Positions 2,135 through 11,592 of a DNA stretch of 12,284 bases are shown piece by piece (position 1 is the first letter of the stretch; each line of letters opens with the position of its first letter). The notes below the pieces were generated by a model. It made no database searches, had not been told where the DNA came from, and saw only the letters and a program-made list of their open reading frames with translations. This DNA is from Promethearchaeota archaeon (GTDB taxonomy: Archaea; Asgardarchaeota; Lokiarchaeia; Sigyniarchaeales; SOKP01). The position numbers and the translations under genes are program-made. The DNA lies in the NCBI GenBank assembly GCA_008080735.1, contig SHMW01000104.1, positions 1 through 12,284 of the forward strand, given 5' to 3'.

Positions 2135-3346
2135 GTGAAGAAAATGGAAAAATCAATCACCGTGTTCCAATTGAAAGGTTCTGAGTATGAAATGGGAGTT
2201 AAGCAAGGAACTCATTTCAGATATGAAATTAACGAGTTATATAGGAAACTCACATCTTCAGAAGAATTTTTAGCATCAAAACCATTCCTTATTCCTAAAT
2301 TCCTATATAAGGGTTTGGCAACGATAGTTTCTTCAGGAATGATTAAAGAATCAATACAAGAATATTTTCCCTCTCAATGGAGGTTTCTGGAAGGGTTAAG
2401 TGAAGGAGCGGATATCTCTCTAAGAAAGCTTTTATTTATGCAAGCTATTGATGCGCTTGGAACCCAAATAACCAATTATAAAATAGAAAAGAACATCTCA
2501 ACCTCCTTTAATCATTGTAGTGCGGTAGGCGTTAGCGGATCTAAGAGTACCACGGGGGGCGTCTTAATGATCAAGAATTGGGATGGTCCGGAATACTTGG
2601 CCGAATATACCATATTTAGAAATATCATCCCTTCGGGAGAACGATTCTCAACAATCGGTTCTGGAGTAGCTGGGCTGGTCGGAATTAATAATGGGTTGAA
2701 TGAAAAAGGCCTTTCTATCGTATATAATTATGCATATCCAAAAGATATCGGTGATGAAGGCGTTCCCGCCATGATCATTATCAGAGAGGCATTAGAAACT
2801 TGTGGTACGGTGAAGGAAACCATAGACCTTTTTAAGAAATATCCTCGAATCGGAGGATCGAATGTGATGATGGCAGATAAAAAAGGAGATTTAGCGGTCT
2901 TGGAAGTTGGGCCTTCAAATGTGGAAGTACGTCGTGAAGATGATGAGGGGCAAAAAGGATGGTTAATTTGTACTAATCATTATCTCACTTCCGCTATGAA
3001 AAAATTAGAAGTTTCCAGGGATGCCATATACAGTGAGGGTGCTGCCGAAGTGTTTCGCGGAAAACCTGTACATAAAACTTCGCTCTTACGATATGAAAAT
3101 GCTCGTGAGATTTTGAAAAATGATTCCCCAGAACAAATCTCCTTAGATTTTCTTAATAATAAAATTCAATGCAGCCATGGGAGAGAAAATAAACCATCGG
3201 AATTTACATTCTGTAATCATGGAATAAAAATCTCAACTGGATTTGGGGTAATGGTAGACGTGGATAATGAACAATTCTATGCCGCTCTTGGAAAACCTTG
3301 TCAGAAGGAGATGGAAAACTTAAGTGAGCAGATAAAATCCGATTAA
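2135..3346 (+). CDS. C45 family autoproteolytic acyltransferase/peptidase (Ntn hydrolase)
   Basis: GSEYEMGVKQG N-terminus; putative nucleophile Cys128 in NHCSAVGV (codon 2516-2518); KNWD, GLNEKGL, CTNHY and S..RY motifs. Start may be ATG 2144. Confidence 0.88.
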   Translation: MKKMEKSITVFQLKGSEYEMGVKQGTHFRYEINELYRKLTSSEEFLASKPFLIPKFLYKGLATIVSSGMIKESIQEYFPSQWRFLEGLSEGADISLRKLLFMQAIDALGTQITNYKIEKNISTSFNHCSAVGVSGSKSTTGGVLMIKNWDGPEYLAEYTIFRNIIPSGERFSTIGSGVAGLVGINNGLNEKGLSIVYNYAYPKDIGDEGVPAMIIIREALETCGTVKETIDLFKKYPRIGGSNVMMADKKGDLAVLEVGPSNVEVRREDDEGQKGWLICTNHYLTSAMKKLEVSRDAIYSEGAAEVFRGKPVHKTSLLRYENAREILKNDSPEQISLDFLNNKIQCSHGRENKPSEFTFCNHGIKISTGFGVMVDVDNEQFYAALGKPCQKEMENLSEQIKSD

Positions 3347-3644: not shown

Positions 3645-4169
3645 TCATTTAAGGGAAACTTTAATTAAATTGATAATTTCATCTGGGGACAATCCGTTGC
3701 AATCGATAGTGAGGTTCGAATATTTATTGTAGAGTGTTATTCTCTCTTGATATAATTCAGGGAGAGAAAGGGAATCCAATCCAACAATACCTCGAGATTC
3801 TTTATTATCTAATCGCTCTTTTAGAACTTCTAAAGGTAAATCTAAAAATATTATAGTTGAGATCTGATTTAATTTATTCATAACTGTCTTAGAATAGATC
3901 ACCGAACCACCCGGAGAAATAACAGAATTTTGCAGAGGAAGTAATTCTAAAATTGCTTCTTCCTCTATTTCGCAGAATTTTTCATTCCCATTGGTATCTA
4001 TGATCTCTTGGAGATTTCTTCCTTCTTTCTCTTCAATATAATCATCAGTATCGATAAAATCGAAGTCTAACTCATCTGCCAGTAATTTGCCGATAGTTGA
4101 TTTTCCCGATCCTGGCATTCCAATAAGAGTGATATTTTCACACTTTTTCATCTCTCTTCTTGTATACAT
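3645..4169 (-). CDS. aroK: Shikimate kinase, bacterial AroK-type (P-loop NMP kinase fold)
   Basis: ITLIGMPGSGKSTIG Walker A; FIDTDDYIE; VISPGGS; IFLDLPLEVLKERL; LYQERITLY. Start may be ATG 4151. Confidence 0.88.
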   Translation of the reverse strand: MYTRREMKKCENITLIGMPGSGKSTIGKLLADELDFDFIDTDDYIEEKEGRNLQEIIDTNGNEKFCEIEEEAILELLPLQNSVISPGGSVIYSKTVMNKLNQISTIIFLDLPLEVLKERLDNKESRGIVGLDSLSLPELYQERITLYNKYSNLTIDCNGLSPDEIINLIKVSLK

Positions 4170-4265: not shown

Positions 4266-4332
4266 TAAGATAAATTGATAGAAAATCATCAAAATATTCT
4301 ATTAAAAACAAATTTACGTGAAGGGAAAAAAT

Positions 4333-4800
4333 ATGGTAAAGTTTGAAGATATAGAAGAAATCGGGAAGAAATGGGCGAACGAATATTGTGAGGCGTTAAA
4401 TAACAGTAAGGCATACGAAGAGGCAGCAAAAGGATGGGGTATTGATTTTGATGGCTCGATGTTATTTGTAATGGAACCTTCGGGGGAGATTGAAGAAGGA
4501 GTATCTGCGTTTTTAGATTTAAAGGATGGAAAATGCTTAGGAATTCAGATCCTCCAACCAGAAGAAGAACCTCCTAGAGATCCCATCATGACCTTAAAGG
4601 GCTCCTTTCTTTTATGGAAAAAATTAGCATTTCAAGAAATTGACCCCATCCAAAGTCTGATGTCTGGGAAATTAAAATTGGAAGGAGAGATGTCCCTCGC
4701 GATGCGATATGCCAGAGCTGCGATGGAGCTTGCCAATGCGACCCAAAATACCGATACGACATTCTTTACAAAATTTGATCTGGGAGAAGAGACTGAATGA
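4333..4800 (+). CDS. SCP2 sterol/lipid-binding domain protein
   Basis: WANEYCEALNNSKAYEEAAKGW; FLDLKDGKC; WKKL...IDPIQSLMSGKLKLEGEM, the SCP2 signature. ATG 4333 preferred over GTG 4318. Confidence 0.88.
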   Translation: MVKFEDIEEIGKKWANEYCEALNNSKAYEEAAKGWGIDFDGSMLFVMEPSGEIEEGVSAFLDLKDGKCLGIQILQPEEEPPRDPIMTLKGSFLLWKKLAFQEIDPIQSLMSGKLKLEGEMSLAMRYARAAMELANATQNTDTTFFTKFDLGEETE

Positions 4801-4813
4801 GGTGGAAAAGAAT

Positions 4814-5566
4814 ATGACTGATTATAAACAGCAGATTGATTATTCAATGCCACGACAAAACGGATTATTCCCACCTCCTCCGTATGAATATCCTAATATG
4901 CGTGCAATAGTGGTCCTCTTTCAATGTAAAGCAGGGATAAAAGAGAAATATCTTCCTCCAGAGCTGGAACCGATTGAATTTGGCTTTGATGCGATTTTTA
5001 TTTCAGATTATCCAGACTCCAGCGTTGGGCCTTATTTTGAAAATCTTATTGTATTAAATTGTAAATATAAAGACCAACCGGGAGCATTCGTGTTTAATAT
5101 CTATGTTACAACAGAAGAGGCACTAACCGCGGGAAGAGAGATATGGGGATATCCAAAAAAGCTCTGCGATATTAAACTCTCACCAATTCAAGAAAAGGAT
5201 GGCAAGAAAAAAGTCTATGGAAGCCTTACTAGAAAAGACATCACATTTCTCGAAGTGGAACTCAATGTGTTAGATGATCCCCCGGGTATGGATCCCCAAG
5301 GAATGATCGAAAATATGCCGCTTTATAATTTGAAGCTCATTCCCGATGTTTCAAGTAATTCTACTCCAGCATTACGGCAATTAACTGAAACCAATATGAA
5401 ATATAAAGATTTTACTAAACAATTTGGGGCGGAAACGAGTTTTGTAAAATCAACATATTCAAAATATGATATTTGTCATGACCTTCTCAAGGATGCGAAT
5501 ACAAATTTAGGTGGCTTTTATATCGAATGCACTCAAATCCTTCCAAATGGGAAAATTTTGGAATAA
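4814..5566 (+). CDS. Acetoacetate decarboxylase-like superfamily protein (Schiff-base Lys)
   Basis: Start reassigned to ATG 4814 (GAGGTG RBS at 4799-4804; removes the overlap with SCP2). FPPPPYEY, GPYFE, AGREIWGYPKK (Lys115, codon 5156-5158), YNLKLIP. Confidence 0.9.
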   Translation: MTDYKQQIDYSMPRQNGLFPPPPYEYPNMRAIVVLFQCKAGIKEKYLPPELEPIEFGFDAIFISDYPDSSVGPYFENLIVLNCKYKDQPGAFVFNIYVTTEEALTAGREIWGYPKKLCDIKLSPIQEKDGKKKVYGSLTRKDITFLEVELNVLDDPPGMDPQGMIENMPLYNLKLIPDVSSNSTPALRQLTETNMKYKDFTKQFGAETSFVKSTYSKYDICHDLLKDANTNLGGFYIECTQILPNGKILE

Positions 5567-5591
5567 AAATAAATCCGAAGTTATTTTTATT
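5562..5591. promoter_or_regulatory. Perfect 11-bp inverted repeat inside the operon (hairpin or operator candidate)
   Basis: AATAAAAATAA (5562-5572), 8-nt spacer ATCCGAAG, TTATTTTTATT (5581-5591), then a T-rich tail. Confidence 0.4.
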
Positions 5592-5631
5592 GTTTATTTT
5601 ATAAGTTTATACTAATTAATAGGTGGAATAT

Positions 5632-7155
5632 ATGAATGTGATAGGAAATGCGTTTGAAGAAATAGAAGATATAGTGGGGACTAAATATGTGACGGATTCT
5701 GAGCCTATCTGTTATTCTTACTCAATGAATTGTGATACTGTACTTCAAGGAATCCCTGAGATTGTTGTAAAACCTAGTTCTTCAGAAGAAGTTGCGGGAA
5801 TTCTAAAAGTTGCCAACAAATATAAAATAAAAGTTATCCCTCGAGGGGGTGGCGCGGACCTTACTGGAGGAGCGAAACCGATTGGTGATGGAGGTATTAT
5901 TGTAGATATTACGCGGATGAATCAGATTTTAGATGTTGATGAGAAGAATCATATCGTCACCGTAGAATGTGGGATTTCGTGGAGTGAATTATGCGCACAA
6001 TTAAAAAAAGTGGGAGTGGGATATTATACTGGTTCTACGGGACCAGGATCCGGTTTTTCTGCCACTATTGGAGGCGGGCTTTCGAATAATACCTTAGGAG
6101 GCGGGGGTGCTGCAATGTATGGGAATGTGACCGAGCAATGTGTGGGATTAGAGGTTGTTCTTCCCACGGGCGAGATAATTTATACGGGAGCAAAAGCTAA
6201 TTCATTCTGCAAGAAACCATTTACTCGGTTTGGATTAGGACCCGATTATTCAGGACTATTTTTGGGAGATGTCGGTATCCATGGCATAAAAACACAAGCC
6301 TCACTTAAATTGTATCCCATTCCAGAATATGCCGCCTATAGTACCTATGAGATTAATGACAATCAAGATAGAAAAGAATATATAAAGGTTATGAAGGTTA
6401 TGCAGAGATGGCAGCAAAAGCACCTTCCACTACACGATTATTACTATTATACCAAAGGATATACCAAACTCCTCACCACGTTTCAAATCAAAAAGAACTT
6501 AGCAAATATGGGGGTAGAAGGGAGTGTGATGTTTTATACCACGGTCGCGGACACCCAAAAAGAGTTAGAGAACTCCGTTGAACAAATTGAGGGAATTGCT
6601 GAGAAAGGAGGATTGAGTAAGCTTGGAGAAACTGTAGAAGAGGGAAACTTGGGGAAATGGTTTTATGAAGAAGACGGGCGTTGGCAATGGGCGCACATCT
6701 ATTGGGGGCTATATGGTCCAGAAGGGACGAGCTTAGGTACATGCCTCAAATGCCCAACATACCAATTACCCGACTATATTCAATTATATGAGGATTGGGC
6801 AAATCGGAACCGTGAGAAATTTTGGAGTGTGGGAGGTGGCGGAGCGAATTTTATTGTGATAGGATGCCATCCCTGTTATATAGACGTTACTGGCGGGATC
6901 ACACTCCATACCGACATCAAAAACAGAAAAATATATTATGAACTCTGGGAAGATCTTCTCCTATCTCAAATCAAGGATTTGGGTGCTATTCATTATTGGA
7001 TGGGTGAGATTATTGGTAAAACCTTAGTTGATTCCGGAGCTTTATCAAAAGAATATTACGATTTTATGATCTCGGTTAAAAAAGCCCTTGATCCAAAAGG
7101 TATTATGAGTCCCGGTAAATTTTATCTGAACAGGGCATATGGAGGTGGTGTTTAA
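5632..7155 (+). CDS. FAD-binding oxidoreductase, VAO/PCMH superfamily (GlcD/D-lactate dehydrogenase-like, divergent)
   Basis: PEIVVKPSSSEEV; IPRGGGADLTGGA; SATIGG; GLEVVLPTGEI; VKKALDPKGIMSPGK. ATG 5632 follows an AGGTGG RBS at 5621-5626. Confidence 0.9.
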   Translation: MNVIGNAFEEIEDIVGTKYVTDSEPICYSYSMNCDTVLQGIPEIVVKPSSSEEVAGILKVANKYKIKVIPRGGGADLTGGAKPIGDGGIIVDITRMNQILDVDEKNHIVTVECGISWSELCAQLKKVGVGYYTGSTGPGSGFSATIGGGLSNNTLGGGGAAMYGNVTEQCVGLEVVLPTGEIIYTGAKANSFCKKPFTRFGLGPDYSGLFLGDVGIHGIKTQASLKLYPIPEYAAYSTYEINDNQDRKEYIKVMKVMQRWQQKHLPLHDYYYYTKGYTKLLTTFQIKKNLANMGVEGSVMFYTTVADTQKELENSVEQIEGIAEKGGLSKLGETVEEGNLGKWFYEEDGRWQWAHIYWGLYGPEGTSLGTCLKCPTYQLPDYIQLYEDWANRNREKFWSVGGGGANFIVIGCHPCYIDVTGGITLHTDIKNRKIYYELWEDLLLSQIKDLGAIHYWMGEIIGKTLVDSGALSKEYYDFMISVKKALDPKGIMSPGKFYLNRAYGGGV

Positions 7156-7157
7156 GA

Positions 7158-8399
7158 ATGAGTGAAAATAAATCCGAAAACCAATTGAAGAATTTAGAAA
7201 AGGTAAAAGATGCGGCATTATCATGCGTGCATTGTGGGCAGTGTCGGGTGGCAAATTGGCCAATCCAAAATTTTTATTATGTATGTCCTGTCTATAAATC
7301 CCAAGTATCCCCTCAATTTGATCCGTATTTCGCGCGCGGAAAAAATATTATCTTAAAAGGATTATTATGGGGAGATTTGAAATTGAGTAGGGAAATTACT
7401 GAATTGTTTTCTCAGTGTTCTCTGTGCGGAGCATGTGAAGAATTTTGCCATAATGCTATGAATGAGAATTTTGATTTTCCGACTCATAGGTGGACAAGTA
7501 TGGTCGAAGTTTTCGAAGCTTTGCGGGCGGATTTAGTGGAAGCGGGGTTCGCGCTTGATTCACATTCTTCAATGAATAAAGCTTTAACAGAAAAACTGAA
7601 TCCCTATGACCGTGATAATAAGGAAAAAAGTAAGTGGACGGATCAAATCGACTTTAAAGTGAAGGATGCTTCCAAAAAGCCAATAGATCTTCTTTATTAT
7701 GTGGGATGTACAGCAGCCCTTACTCCCAATATTCAAAATATTGCCATCTATACCTCCAAAATATTACATAAACTTGGGATAGATTTTGGGATCTTAGGAG
7801 AACACGAGATTTGTTGCGGCAGCGTAGCTCTCAGAACGGGTGATAGGAAGGCATTTGAGACTATATCCGAGAAAAATGTAGAGCTATTAAAAAGATTAGG
7901 GATTAAAACTATTATAACCAGCTGTGCGGGATGTTATAGAACTTTAAAGAAAGATTACAACAAGAAATTAGATGGAATAGAAATTTTCCATACAGTAGAA
8001 TTTCTCCAAACTTATCTTCAAGAAAAAGAGATCAGTCTCAAGAATTTAGAAATTAGAACAACCTATCACGATCCTTGCCACATTGGGCGCCATATGGGAA
8101 TGTATGAAATTCCACGAGAAGTATTAGCGCAAATATCTGACCCTATTGAAATGCAGACAAACCGAGAAGGGGCTATGTGTTGCGGAGCGGGAGGTGGATT
8201 ACGAAAAGGGAATGCAGAACTTTCCTTAGATCTGGCTAAAAATCGTGTTAAAGAAGCTATGGAAACAGGGGTTGAAAATCTTGTGAGTACCTGCCCCTTT
8301 TGTTATCGAAACCTTTCAGATGCGTTAGAAGAACTCAATTCTGAAATGAAAATGATTGATTTAGTTCAATTGATTTATGATTCCCTTAATCGAAAATGA
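7158..8399 (+). CDS. (Fe-S)-binding protein, GlcF/HdrD family (two ferredoxin-type motifs plus two CCG domains)
   Basis: CVHCGQC...CP; CSLCGACEEFC; VGC..ICCG..SCAGC; HDPCH..MCCGAGGG..TCPFC. GGAGGTG RBS at 7141-7147; starts 2 nt after the upstream stop. Confidence 0.92.
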   Translation: MSENKSENQLKNLEKVKDAALSCVHCGQCRVANWPIQNFYYVCPVYKSQVSPQFDPYFARGKNIILKGLLWGDLKLSREITELFSQCSLCGACEEFCHNAMNENFDFPTHRWTSMVEVFEALRADLVEAGFALDSHSSMNKALTEKLNPYDRDNKEKSKWTDQIDFKVKDASKKPIDLLYYVGCTAALTPNIQNIAIYTSKILHKLGIDFGILGEHEICCGSVALRTGDRKAFETISEKNVELLKRLGIKTIITSCAGCYRTLKKDYNKKLDGIEIFHTVEFLQTYLQEKEISLKNLEIRTTYHDPCHIGRHMGMYEIPREVLAQISDPIEMQTNREGAMCCGAGGGLRKGNAELSLDLAKNRVKEAMETGVENLVSTCPFCYRNLSDALEELNSEMKMIDLVQLIYDSLNRK

Positions 8400-8752: not shown

Positions 8753-9862
8753 TTAAATAAATAAGAATTCTTGTCTCTCACCAACAGCTTCGGGGATCTG
8801 AGTCTCTAAATTAAATCGATTTTTTAAAATACGAGAAAGACTTAGAGCCTCAATAGTTCTGCCCTCTTCCCAAAAATCTATGTCGCAAATAAGATTTGAG
8901 AGGTGTATGATGGAATCTATTGTTGGTGTGTCAATTTTTAAGAATCTTCCTAAGGATGCTAATGGAACTAATCCAGTAGGCACATCTTCAGTGAAATACC
9001 TAGTTTTTAACTCCGATGGTGCGTCAATTCCCTTATAGACACTTATTTTCTGAAGTGTGTCATAAATATTTTTCCCAGATTCTCCATACACTTGTTTAGC
9101 CCAGCTACAAAAATCAAATCTCCTCAAGCCTATCTTTTTCAAAATTTGATTAATTTCGGTTTGTAGTTTTTCAAGGATTTTACATATACTTTTTGAAGCC
9201 CCTTCTCCATAAAATTTGAAATTAAGTCCAGTTTCAATTGCTCCTGAATTTAGTAAAGCTACCGATGGATGTAAGAGCATACCTATATTATTTAGAGTAA
9301 GTTGAAAATAATTTTTGGCTGGAATTAGTTGTGGAAAAAAGGCTTTTAATTTCTTATGAATGTAAGGATTCTCATTTACACGAAAGGAAGAAAATTTCAC
9401 ACTATCTTTTATTTTATGTATTCTAACCATATCTTTTTCTAAGCTTCTTGATGTGAATAAAAGAGTTTGAGTTTCAGCGATATAGACTTTCAAATTTTTT
9501 CGCTGCTGTTTAATATATTTACTAACCTCAACAGATCCAAAAGTTCTTCCAGGATTAAGTAGTATTATCTGATCATCAGTTAAAAATGGAGCAAGTTTCT
9601 TTGCCATTTCTTTATGTGCGGAGGCAGGTACCACTACCATTAAAATATCTGTATTTTTTACTGCCTTTTCAAGATTTTGGGTGATTTTCGCTAAAGGATA
9701 GAACCCGTATATTGCCCCTTCAGCTCTAATTCCACCAGAATTTTTTATATGTTTTATTCGCGAGGGGGATCGATTATAAAGATTTACTGGATAATTCAAT
9801 GAAGATAAATACGCAGCTACAGCTCTTCCTCCAGATCCCGCACCAATTACACAGAATTTCAA
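8753..9862 (-). CDS. NAD/NADP octopine/nopaline (opine) dehydrogenase family protein
   Basis: VIGAGSGG Rossmann motif; LNPGRTFG; AETQTL; NIGMLLHP (catalytic His); FKFYGEG; RYFTEDVPTGLVP (catalytic Asp). TTG start with AGGTGA RBS at 9873-9878 inside the upstream gene. Confidence 0.92.
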   Translation of the reverse strand: MKFCVIGAGSGGRAVAAYLSSLNYPVNLYNRSPSRIKHIKNSGGIRAEGAIYGFYPLAKITQNLEKAVKNTDILMVVVPASAHKEMAKKLAPFLTDDQIILLNPGRTFGSVEVSKYIKQQRKNLKVYIAETQTLLFTSRSLEKDMVRIHKIKDSVKFSSFRVNENPYIHKKLKAFFPQLIPAKNYFQLTLNNIGMLLHPSVALLNSGAIETGLNFKFYGEGASKSICKILEKLQTEINQILKKIGLRRFDFCSWAKQVYGESGKNIYDTLQKISVYKGIDAPSELKTRYFTEDVPTGLVPLASLGRFLKIDTPTIDSIIHLSNLICDIDFWEEGRTIEALSLSRILKNRFNLETQIPEAVGERQEFLFI

Positions 9863-9864
9863 GA

Positions 9865-11592
9865 TTATGTACTCACCTTTTCATTTTGATTCTCACTTAT
9901 CAATTCAACATTATAATCGTCTAAGTCAAGTAAAATCTCCGAAATTCTTTCTATTTCACTGATAGGTTCATTATATTCATTTATAGAATCATAACCCCCC
10001 TTAATTACCTTTGTCTTAATCATACCCTTACCAAATCTGTTATTCTTTAGATGGGGGGCGTCAAAAATTCCCAATTCAACCAGTCGGGATAAGATAGAGG
10101 GATTTAACCAAGGACATTCAATATTTTCATGATCTCTTGTTAATCGAGGGATTAAGTTGACAATCCATTTAGCTTGTTTTATTAATGATTCTTTTCTCTC
10201 ATTATATAATTTATTATCTAATCTAACATTACTTGAGCTCATCTTTTTAACGACTTGATCAACAATTTGACAACTTTCGATTATATCTTCGGGAAACGCC
10301 GCATGTGAAGCCTCTGAAAAACTAACCACATGGATAATATTGGGCTTTAATAATAGCTGAATCAAACTAGACGCTGCTAATTGTCCTTTAGCTTTATTAG
10401 TATTCAATGGAAAACTTGCTAAACCCGTTCTAACTTGCGTAATGATCCTAAATGAATCATTTTCTAAGGTTTTAAGCAATTCGTTTTTTGCTAATATCTT
10501 CGCTAAATCCATTTCAAAAGATATATTTGGCGGAGTATTAAACATATACTGAGCAATAAAATGTTTAACACCTAGTTTTTTAGCAATTATTCCACATAAA
10601 TACATATCAGCGACAGCAATTGCATCCGGTGCATTTCTCAGACTCCAATGATGAGGATCATTTATTTCTACAGGAATCGAACGCTTTCCATGCCATCTAA
10701 TTGCCTCTAGATGTTGCTGAATCGATCTTCTTAATGAGAGGGGGCCTCTTCGGTCCATTTGGTTAAACCAGAAAATTGGAATTGCTGCCCACGCATTATT
10801 AATCGTCTTATTGTAGAGTTTGGCCAATTTGATGAAATCTCTTGTTCCTGCATAAATCCGTAATAATGGTGTATTTCCATATTGACGAGCCTTATCGAGT
10901 TTATTAAAATCATCTACATTTCGTAGAGGAACTCCACCTGCGCCTGATAATTCTTCTTTTTGTTCTTGTGGATGAAAAAAATTTTCTTGAGTATTCTGAT
11001 CGGGAGCAATCGAAATAACATCGAGAACCTTTGCTTCAGCTATTTTTTTTATGCCTTGAAGTGTCCTCTCTAAACTGGGGAGACCGAAATGCGCTCTTAT
11101 TAATGGAAATGGTTTTTTCCATTCCAAACGTGAGATTAATGAAGAAGGTATATCCGAAGAATGATTTATTTTATTATGAACGTTTTCATTTTTTAATATC
11201 GAAATGATTTCATATCGTGATTCATCTCCAATAAAGTATCTGTCAAATTGCTTAAATTGCTTAACTATCTCTATAACTTTTGCGGTACCCGCAAAATAGA
11301 GCTGCTCTGCTTGATGATCTAATTTTTGATACTTCCTAAAAAATGATTTAAGTAAGGGTTTAACAGTTTCAGGTGTCAAACGATAACTCAATCCAATAAT
11401 ATCAGGTTGGTGCTTTTTGATTGATTTAATTACATCTGATATAGAATTAGCAGGACCTAAAAAAATGCAATTATAACCCAATTTTTCAGCTATACTAATA
11501 AAATTCTGAGTTCCAGCTACATGTACACATTGGCCGATGCTTGCAGTAAGTATTATCTTTTCTTTTTTAAATTTTAATTGATTTTTATCCAT
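9865..11592 (-). CDS. Cobalamin-dependent mutase-like protein: N-terminal B12-binding domain fused to a GlmE-like TIM barrel
   Basis: GQCVHVAG (DxHxxG variant); FLG; PDIIGLSYRL; YFAGT. The C-terminal region is collinear with remembered glutamate mutase E motifs (e.g. GLASFP..AKG, VSFSEA, GIFDAP...GKG). GAGGT RBS at 11601-11605. Confidence 0.8.
   Translation of the reverse strand: MDKNQLKFKKEKIILTASIGQCVHVAGTQNFISIAEKLGYNCIFLGPANSISDVIKSIKKHQPDIIGLSYRLTPETVKPLLKSFFRKYQKLDHQAEQLYFAGTAKVIEIVKQFKQFDRYFIGDESRYEIISILKNENVHNKINHSSDIPSSLISRLEWKKPFPLIRAHFGLPSLERTLQGIKKIAEAKVLDVISIAPDQNTQENFFHPQEQKEELSGAGGVPLRNVDDFNKLDKARQYGNTPLLRIYAGTRDFIKLAKLYNKTINNAWAAIPIFWFNQMDRRGPLSLRRSIQQHLEAIRWHGKRSIPVEINDPHHWSLRNAPDAIAVADMYLCGIIAKKLGVKHFIAQYMFNTPPNISFEMDLAKILAKNELLKTLENDSFRIITQVRTGLASFPLNTNKAKGQLAASSLIQLLLKPNIIHVVSFSEASHAAFPEDIIESCQIVDQVVKKMSSSNVRLDNKLYNERKESLIKQAKWIVNLIPRLTRDHENIECPWLNPSILSRLVELGIFDAPHLKNNRFGKGMIKTKVIKGGYDSINEYNEPISEIERISEILLDLDDYNVELISENQNEKVST

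Follow-up and report, generated by a model that had tools for sequence, protein, structure and literature searches.

A putative adenosylcobalamin-dependent mutase with a rebuilt glutamate mutase-like active site is paired with an opine dehydrogenase in Asgard archaea and bacteria

The DNA analysed here (the window) is one whole contig of 12,284 bases, SHMW01000104.1, of a 4.1-Mb Asgard (Promethearchaeota) genome bin which is 93% complete. It carries side by side the genes for a protein in which a B12-binding domain is fused, in a single chain, to the N-terminal side of a TIM barrel (P0001, hereafter the mutase) and for an opine dehydrogenase (ODH; P0002). We consider it fairly probable that P0001 is a single-chain, adenosylcobalamin (AdoCbl)-dependent isomerase of the GlmE (glutamate mutase) lineage, which acts on a substrate other than free glutamate and forms a module with an ODH for acidic amino acids. 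Since the protein is GlmE-like without the claw arginines of GlmE, and has the ODH as a near-constant partner, it most likely catalyses a B12-dependent rearrangement which has not been described so far.

The relationship of the barrel to GlmE was seen by family, by fold and by profile. P0001 residues 164-481 matched Met_asp_mut_E of Pfam (PF06368) at 31.6 bits, above the gathering score of 26.6 (E 8.4e-8), and the GlmE equivalog model TIGR01503 gave 16.2 bits, below its cut-off of 390. An AlphaFold2 model of P0001, built with a family alignment of 39 sequences reaching down to 25% identity (A2), had a pLDDT of 91 and a pTM of 0.88. Foldseek placed the GlmE chains 1cb7_B and 6h9e_B first for this model (E 1.3e-17 for 1cb7_B); the next matches were all AdoCbl isomerases, first the aminomutases for ornithine and lysine and then the methylmalonyl-CoA mutase (MCM) family. 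In VIA-align the model gave a Z of 31.8 with GlmE over 371 aligned residues (3.0 A), 30.7 with lysine 5,6-aminomutase over 332 aligned residues, 27.7 with ornithine aminomutase, about 20-22 with MCM-type mutases and about 15.5 with pterin-binding DHPS barrels. As modelled, the fold of P0001 is that of an AdoCbl isomerase barrel with GlmE closest, narrowly ahead of the aminomutases, which bears out the GlmE-like barrel of the original prediction as opposed to a methyltransferase barrel. Sequence searches of the PDB with the single protein, with an Asgard profile (A1) and with the diverse profile A2 reached B12 domains only and stopped short of GlmE; we therefore took the residue map from genuine Clostridia GlmE genes and hhalign. 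The reference, P0292, comes from a Clostridia genome, scores 818 bits on TIGR01503 and is ~80% identical to the Clostridium cochlearium chains 6h9e_B/1cb7_B, whose numbering it shares as far as about residue 282; together with 19 further GlmE sequences it made up a comparison set of 20. Aligned by hhalign against this set, A2 gave a probability of 95.8% (E 6.9e-9) in local mode and of 97.8% (E 6.3e-12) in global mode. When four-sequence profiles were used, GlmE was matched with an E of 1e-4 and KamD with an E of 0.018, while OraE was matched via its B12 domain only. As read from the sequences, profile comparison separates GlmE from the aminomutases more clearly than the fold does, and the PF06368, Foldseek and VIA-align scores exclude a chance similarity to GlmE.

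The residue map was identical in the local and global modes of hhalign. GlmE R66, R100 and R149, the claw arginines, fell on H168, Q202 and Y247 of P0001, E171 lay opposite a gap in the P0001 family, K326 fell on V423 and E330 on E427, while the two glutamines Q64 and Q147 fell on R166 and R245. Across the 20 GlmE sequences the mapped residues are invariant or nearly so, and the claw arginines are invariant; the Gln/Arg pair which GlmE has on strands 1 and 3 is thus now Arg/His and Arg/Tyr. For the claw, E171, E330 and the new arginines this map had been proposed in the original prediction from an alignment made by eye, which was reproduced in every part. The first block proved to be ungapped (residues 163-203 to GlmE 61-101), each of the later blocks was paired by hhalign (LLRIYAGT/LQARHGT, with one gap, LGVKHF/QGVKNI, GLASFP/MGGFP, VSFSEA/KTPHEA and GIFDAP/GVIDIP), and the claims that the three arginines are replaced, that the base E171 is not evident, that E427 stands for E330 and that the new arginines R166 and R245 lie two residues upstream of lost ones were all recovered. 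D280 or E309 may conceivably stand in for E171 in space.

We then argued from conservation in 118 non-identical members, drawn from Asgard, Bathyarchaeota, Thermococci, Bacillota, Chloroflexota, Bipolaricaulota, Poribacteria and unbinned metagenome sequences. The residues which replace the claw are nearly constant (H168 in 116, Q202 in 114 and Y247 in 117 of the 118), and so is R166 (117/118); R245 is found in 111 members and is Lys in six more, and the ribose-contact counterpart E427 is kept in 115. Hence the conservation proposed as a check on these five positions and Y247 ranges from 111 to 117. Equally constant are D280 and D323 (118/118 each), R282, E309 and H421 (117 each), R388 (116), N311 (115) and R319 (114). 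Even a deep branch of ~27-30% identity retains the same active-site set, with K245 replacing R245. Because the conservation is family-wide and includes this branch, the pocket is a fixed design and not the result of decay. In the model, R166 and R245 probably sit one rung deeper in the barrel than the lost claw arginines, because strand residues i and i-2 face the same way (strands 164-168 and 243-246), an argument from periodicity and not from measured distances. The five invariant arginines R166, R245, R282, R319 and R388 would suit a substrate with several carboxylates.

Several observations bear on the use of AdoCbl. H24 and G27 of the cobalamin motif are each found in 113 of the 118 members, although the Pfam match of the B12-binding domain itself (PF02310, residues 14-74) is weak. 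Pfam found neither a cap domain nor a methyltransferase barrel on P0001, and strand 1 of the model begins as early as residue 13. MutL (PF13941), an accessory protein of the GlmL type known from glutamate mutase, is fused to the mutase in three relatives (P0143, P0147 and P0150), and a stand-alone MutL of 501 bits adjoins the mutase in two further loci (L064 and L074). The host genome encodes two CobA-type adenosyltransferases and three MCM-family mutases, and AdoCbl is therefore probably made and used there; 17 matches to B12-binding domains were counted in the same genome. An AdoCbl role is supported by H24 and G27, the missing cap, the MutL fusions and adjacency in relatives and the two CobA enzymes; together with the MCM enzymes, these points support the earlier proposal of retained AdoCbl chemistry in a remodelled, non-glutamate pocket, the radical catalysis itself being what we infer.

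The second strong pointer to function is the partner gene. Mutase and ODH genes are adjacent in 69 of the 83 loci collected, most exceptions being cut contigs, and this adjacency spans Asgard, Bathyarchaeota, Thermococci, Bacillota, Chloroflexota, Bipolaricaulota and Poribacteria. The mutase gene comes first in the main Asgard clade, and the ODH gene comes first in bacteria and in another Asgard lineage. In homologous loci the two genes overlap by 4 nt, and the layout of the junction (Table 1) suggests translational coupling of mutase and ODH. Two independent partial genes (L118:3-1589 and P0227) even have the C-terminus of the ODH and the N-terminus of the mutase in one reading frame; the L118 fusion gene also has a frameshift later in its mutase part. 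A prediction of the mutase-ODH complex scored 0.01 against a mark of 0.32 and was counted neither for nor against binding. As to substrate, a 2024 study showed that hot-spring mODHs prefer L-Asp, then L-Glu, with pyruvate, and that Arg111 and Gly198 (Arthrobacter numbering) switch ODH preference to Asp/Glu (PMC10787698). The same study cites a position for cofactor preference, which is R31 in P0002 (PMC10787698). Both determinants of amino acid preference, R106 and G194 in P0002, are kept in 70 of 70 mutase-linked partners, and fragments of the hot-spring enzymes are 55-65% identical to mutase-linked ODHs of this set. For P0002 we thus predict a condensation of pyruvate with L-Asp or L-Glu. 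The arginine at residue 31 may be a sign of NADPH use.

Table 1. Position of the mutase, of its opine dehydrogenase partner and of their key residues in the window, with the basis of each assignment
Feature	Position	Strand	Basis
Mutase gene P0001, 575 aa	9865..11592	-	Open reading frame list and translation; Pfam PF02310 and PF06368; AlphaFold2 model, pLDDT 91
B12-binding Rossmann domain, residues 12-135, no cap domain before it	11188..11559	-	PF02310 at 14-74; profile matches to corrinoid proteins and mutase small subunits; strand 1 from residue 13
C22-V-H24-V-A-G27, His-on cobalamin motif with Cys at the canonical Asp site	11512..11529	-	Translation check; alignment of 118
GlmE-like TIM barrel and C-terminal region, residues 161-575	9865..11110	-	Foldseek top matches 1cb7_B and 6h9e_B; VIA-align Z 31.8 over model residues 148-552; hhalign to GlmE
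R166-A-H168, barrel strand 1; H168 in place of GlmE R66, R166 new arginine	11089..11097	-	hhalign map; conservation; model strand 164-168
Q202 in place of GlmE R100	10987..10989	-	hhalign map; Q in 114/118
R245-I-Y247, barrel strand 3; Y247 in place of GlmE R149, R245 new arginine	10852..10860	-	hhalign map; conservation; model strand 243-246
D280-R-R282, loop after strand 4, candidate substrate ligands	10747..10755	-	D 118/118, R282 117/118
R388, strand 7, candidate carboxylate ligand	10429..10431	-	R in 116/118; model strand 381-389
E427, counterpart of GlmE E330 (adenosyl-ribose contact)	10312..10314	-	hhalign map; E in 115/118
Opine dehydrogenase gene P0002, 369 aa, TTG start, CENDH-like	8753..9862	-	PF02317 E 1.8e-40; 1bg6 E 8.3e-69, full length
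ODH R106, Arthrobacter ODH position 111, determinant of acidic amino acid preference	9545..9547	-	Alignment to 1bg6; R in 70/70 partners; mutagenesis in PMC10787698
ODH G194, Arthrobacter ODH position 198, second determinant	9281..9283	-	Alignment to 1bg6; 70/70 partners; PMC10787698
Gene junction: mutase stop TAA, 2 nt, ODH TTG start, GGTGA 9 nt upstream	9860..9885	-	Sequence read directly

Furthermore, the surroundings of the pair in its relatives were analysed. In 21 of 22 Bacillota loci (within L039-L080) the operon is directly preceded by a cyclic di-AMP (c-di-AMP) riboswitch (RF00379, 92-118 bits), for example at L060:4660-4792, and in three Bacillota loci the riboswitch precedes a Ddl-like ATP-grasp gene which heads the operon. 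One Chloroflexota locus (L043) also has this riboswitch, and none was found in the other non-Bacillota loci searched. An Rfam scan of the window gave no RNA family match, so that the Bacillota riboswitch is without counterpart at the Asgard locus; a sigma-70 and terminator scan of the window gave counts at shuffle level, these models being uninformative for an archaeon. In Bacillota, this connection to c-di-AMP points to a role in osmotic balance or as a counter-ion of potassium. A Ddl-like ATP-grasp ligase, scoring under the Ddl cut-offs, is a recurrent neighbour, and so is asparagine synthase B (AsnB), which exceeds its equivalog cut-off in Bipolaricaulota and lies there between the mutase and ODH genes. 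Peptidase_C26/GATase genes are found near the mutase in Asgard loci and in L130; the relative P0124 is fused to a glutathione-synthetase/RimK-type ATP-grasp domain, and in the relative P0134 an M15 peptidase domain was matched weakly, below the threshold. The deep branch (27-30% identical; L127:5809-13000 and L129:5719-8821) lies inside polysaccharide biosynthesis clusters, in the company of an ODH with the same Arg/Gly pair, two ATP-grasp ligases, a DegT-type aminotransferase and glycosyltransferases. The ODH, the mutase and the amide-forming enzymes look like a small module for biosynthesis, which makes a product rich in carboxylates and passes it on to ligation or amidation.

Two side observations concern these neighbours and this branch. 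The AsnB-like neighbours in L013, L014, L025, L034, L060 and L081, including all the Asgard ones seen, have no Cys at the N-terminal nucleophile site (MAGIF...; the L081 open reading frame begins with MPGIAG), and their glutaminase may be inactive; the MCG start is retained in the Bipolaricaulota AsnB copies and in L071, L076 and L082. The deep polysaccharide-cluster branch is the one which retains Asp in the cobalamin motif (23 sequences).

From this evidence we propose the following scheme. By homology, cobalamin would be bound base-off/His-on through H24 in the Rossmann domain at the N-terminus, the barrel would cap the upper corrin face as it does in GlmE, and E427 would replace the Glu which holds the adenosyl ribose there. 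In the alignment, H168, Q202 and Y247 take the positions of the claw arginines, while R166 and R245 precede these positions by two residues on strands 1 and 3. The two new arginines, which probably lie deeper, would together with the invariant R282, R319 and R388 extend the pocket inwards, so that a larger substrate carrying several carboxylates could be bound. Binding of this substrate would lead to Co-C homolysis, the resulting 5'-deoxyadenosyl radical would abstract a hydrogen, and a 1,2-shift would follow. What the substrate is we can only suggest tentatively; our best guess is that it is the opine which the partner ODH is predicted to make from L-Asp or L-Glu and pyruvate, N-(1-carboxyethyl)-L-Asp or -Glu. 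Alternatively, the order may be the reverse, with the mutase making an acidic amino acid which the ODH then condenses. The product would probably be handed to the amide-forming enzymes (Ddl-like ATP-grasp ligases and AsnB), and may end as an anionic osmolyte in Bacillota or as a polysaccharide substituent in the Bacteroidota-like clusters.

Stated in full, the chain from opine to end use becomes more doubtful. It would amount to a new AdoCbl rearrangement on a secondary-amine tricarboxylate, in which the ODH makes N-(1-carboxyethyl)-L-Asp (or -Glu) and the mutase shifts its skeleton, either by moving an N-substituted glycyl fragment in the manner of glutamate mutase or by an 'aza' version in which the alpha-alanine arm becomes a beta-alanine arm; the product would be a metabolically inert anionic compound, serving as a c-di-AMP-controlled osmolyte in Bacillota and as a polysaccharide substituent in Bacteroidota-like bacteria. 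We think it somewhat unlikely that all these steps hold together.

A number of points weigh against our proposal of a GlmE-lineage AdoCbl isomerase, or at least against parts of it, and they are gathered here. Lysine 5,6-aminomutase is almost as near to P0001 in fold as GlmE is (VIA-align Z 30.7 vs 31.8), and the nearest solved relatives of the B12 domain by sequence are methyltransferase corrinoid proteins. The Asp of the DxHxxG motif is replaced by Cys in 90 of the 118 members (Asp is found in 23), an exchange which may affect His-on chemistry. Neither a MutL nor a PduO-type adenosyltransferase was found in the host genome, which is 93% complete. Within its own phylum the gene occurs in 121 of 301 sampled genomes and is therefore accessory. 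We know of no biochemical precedent for a 1,2-shift on a secondary-amine opine. Finally, the cofactor form, the radical chemistry and the substrate of the family are all things which we infer.

Other readings of P0001 have also to be set against the same evidence. The ODH reaction is reversible, and genes for an ABC-type (oligopeptide) transporter ATPase, a C45 hydrolase, Peptidase_C26 and a 2-oxoacid:ferredoxin oxidoreductase lie near some members; P0001 could then be an AdoCbl eliminase or lyase, or cleave C-N bonds, with an opine or an amino compound as its substrate, and so serve the catabolism of imported opine-like compounds or peptides. We regard this as unlikely, for its nearest relatives in fold and profile are isomerases and not diol dehydratase or ethanolamine lyase, and its siting in polysaccharide biosynthesis clusters and beside ligases points to synthesis. 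Quite improbable, in our opinion, is a pyridoxal 5'-phosphate (PLP)-dependent aminomutase of the lysine/ornithine type, whose shifted amine would be oxidised by the dehydrogenase, a sequence of steps familiar from the fermentation of lysine and ornithine. Aminomutases paired with a dehydrogenase are indeed known, and KamD and OraE come close behind GlmE in fold (Z 30.7 and 27.7); but P0001 has no match to PF09043 (Pfam), the hhalign similarity to KamD amounts to a probability of 2.5% (E 0.018) and that to OraE runs through the B12 domain only, there is no conserved lysine in the Rossmann domain (residues 1-140) to hold PLP, and the conserved barrel lysines K365 and K402 are Arg in some members.

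Public records label the Asgard genes 'methionine synthase', and the B12 domain is indeed nearest by sequence to MetH, MtgC and 4jgi-type corrinoid proteins, as would be expected if P0001 were a corrinoid methyltransferase or methyl carrier. This name is, however, without support from the evidence presented here: no cap domain and no match to a homocysteine- or pterin-binding domain was obtained (Pfam), the barrel gave Z values of 20-32 with AdoCbl isomerases as compared to about 15.5 with pterin-binding DHPS, and relatives are fused to MutL while the ribose-binding Glu is retained, all of which makes a methyltransferase very unlikely. That P0001 is simply a fused glutamate mutase, which converts L-glutamate to 3-methylaspartate and back, is the least credible reading of all, since, even though GlmE is closest in fold and Pfam family and the ODH partner takes Asp-like amino acids, of which 3-methylaspartate is one, the three claw arginines and E171 are absent and their replacements conserved, the TIGR01503 score of 16.2 bits stands against a cut-off of 390, and no GlmE equivalog was found in the host genome.

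The GlmE-related mutase is widespread. P0001 has >4,272 close homologues, of which the best 120 listed are 60-73% identical and come from Asgard metagenome-assembled genomes where the source is named; 656 proteins of a library of 50%-identity representatives match it at E <= 0.001, and at least 590 GTDB species genomes carry the family. In a FastTree phylogeny the main Asgard type formed one well-supported clade, while two other Asgard lineages fell elsewhere, which hints at separate acquisitions. These other lineages (L115, 3306-5933, L116 and L117) have a version which is 42-50% identical; in L115 and L116 (family f9) it is ~505-515 aa long and the ODH gene comes first, which is the bacterial order, and in L117 (family f2) it has 568 aa and the mutase gene comes first. 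The family as such is not new. Zhang, Rodionov, Gelfand and Gladyshev (2009) predicted it to be B12-dependent from 11 bacterial genomes and assigned no reaction to it; they described a distant N-terminal B12-binding domain, encoded beside a pfam02317 dehydrogenase in every case, and noted D-Ala-D-Ala ligase and asparagine synthase genes in the vicinity (PMC2667541). P0001 belongs to this family, and our literature searches found no biochemical study of it.

The rest of the window was also inspected. A gene for an autoproteolytic hydrolase of the C45/AAT family is located at 2135-3346 on the plus strand, 6.5 kb from the mutase; a PF03417 (AAT) gene also directly precedes a MutL-fused mutase relative in L119 (2503-3603) and L120, which may be a coincidence. 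On the minus strand, 3645-4169 encodes a shikimate-kinase-fold protein, whose best match was the 'Desulfo-type' homoserine kinase model NF040667 with 166 bits, below the cut-off of 197. Four co-oriented genes (SCP2, acetoacetate-decarboxylase-like, FAD-binding GlcD-like and CCG/Fe-S HdrD-like) occupy 4318-8399 on the plus strand and run towards the ODH gene; as they were not seen beside the pair in other loci, they probably have nothing to do with it.

To our knowledge, the list of AdoCbl-dependent rearrangements has only about a dozen entries and is seldom extended. Here a large family across two domains of life has a rigidly conserved active site which is clearly not a glutamate site, and since its partner is an ODH with a measured substrate class, the reaction of the mutase is directly testable. 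The identity of the product would assign a function to the Asgard genes misnamed 'methionine synthase', would account for one member of the regulon which c-di-AMP controls in thermophilic Bacillota, and could possibly reveal a new solute or glycan substituent.

Among known systems, the best match to the P0001 barrel in fold and profile is the glutamate mutase GlmS/GlmE of C. cochlearium (EC 5.4.99.1; PDB 1cb7, 1ccw, 1i9c and 6h9e), at an identity of ~15-16% to GlmE. GlmE and P0001 have in common a glycine (G68/G170), an aspartate (D96/D198), the ribose Glu (E330/E427) and, by prediction for P0001, His-on B12 binding, and GlmL/MutL-type accessory proteins accompany both glutamate mutase and relatives of the P0001 family. 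They differ in that the B12 domain is a separate S subunit (GlmS) in glutamate mutase and an N-terminal fusion in P0001, in that GlmE R66, R100, R149, E171 and K326 are His, Gln, Tyr, a gap and Val in P0001, whose own arginines sit at the positions of GlmE Q64 and Q147, and in the cobalamin motif, which is CxHxxG in P0001 and DxHxxG in glutamate mutase. Moreover, an ODH partner is obligatory for the P0001 family, unlike for glutamate mutase. Lysine 5,6-aminomutase KamDE and ornithine 4,5-aminomutase OraSE (PDB 8t0v, 1xrs and 3kp1) also use AdoCbl and combine a TIM barrel with a Rossmann domain (Z 27-31); they are, however, PLP-dependent through a Schiff-base lysine in the Rossmann domain, whereas P0001 has no such conserved lysine and its barrel resembles theirs only weakly at the profile level. 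The family of Zhang et al. 2009 answers to the same description as that of P0001 (PMC2667541); their account covered 11 bacteria, without a relation to GlmE or an analysis of the active site, while in the present one the family extends to archaea, Asgard among them, and is carried by at least 590 species genomes. P0002, for its part, aligns over its full length with the Arthrobacter N-(1-D-carboxyethyl)-L-norvaline dehydrogenase (CENDH, 1bg6; E 8.3e-69), and shares the Arg111/Gly198 pair with the hot-spring mODHs (PMC10787698). In that paper the mODHs are studied as isolated biocatalysts, and genomic context, natural function and cobalamin do not figure in it (PMC10787698), whereas P0002 is one half of a conserved B12-enzyme module.

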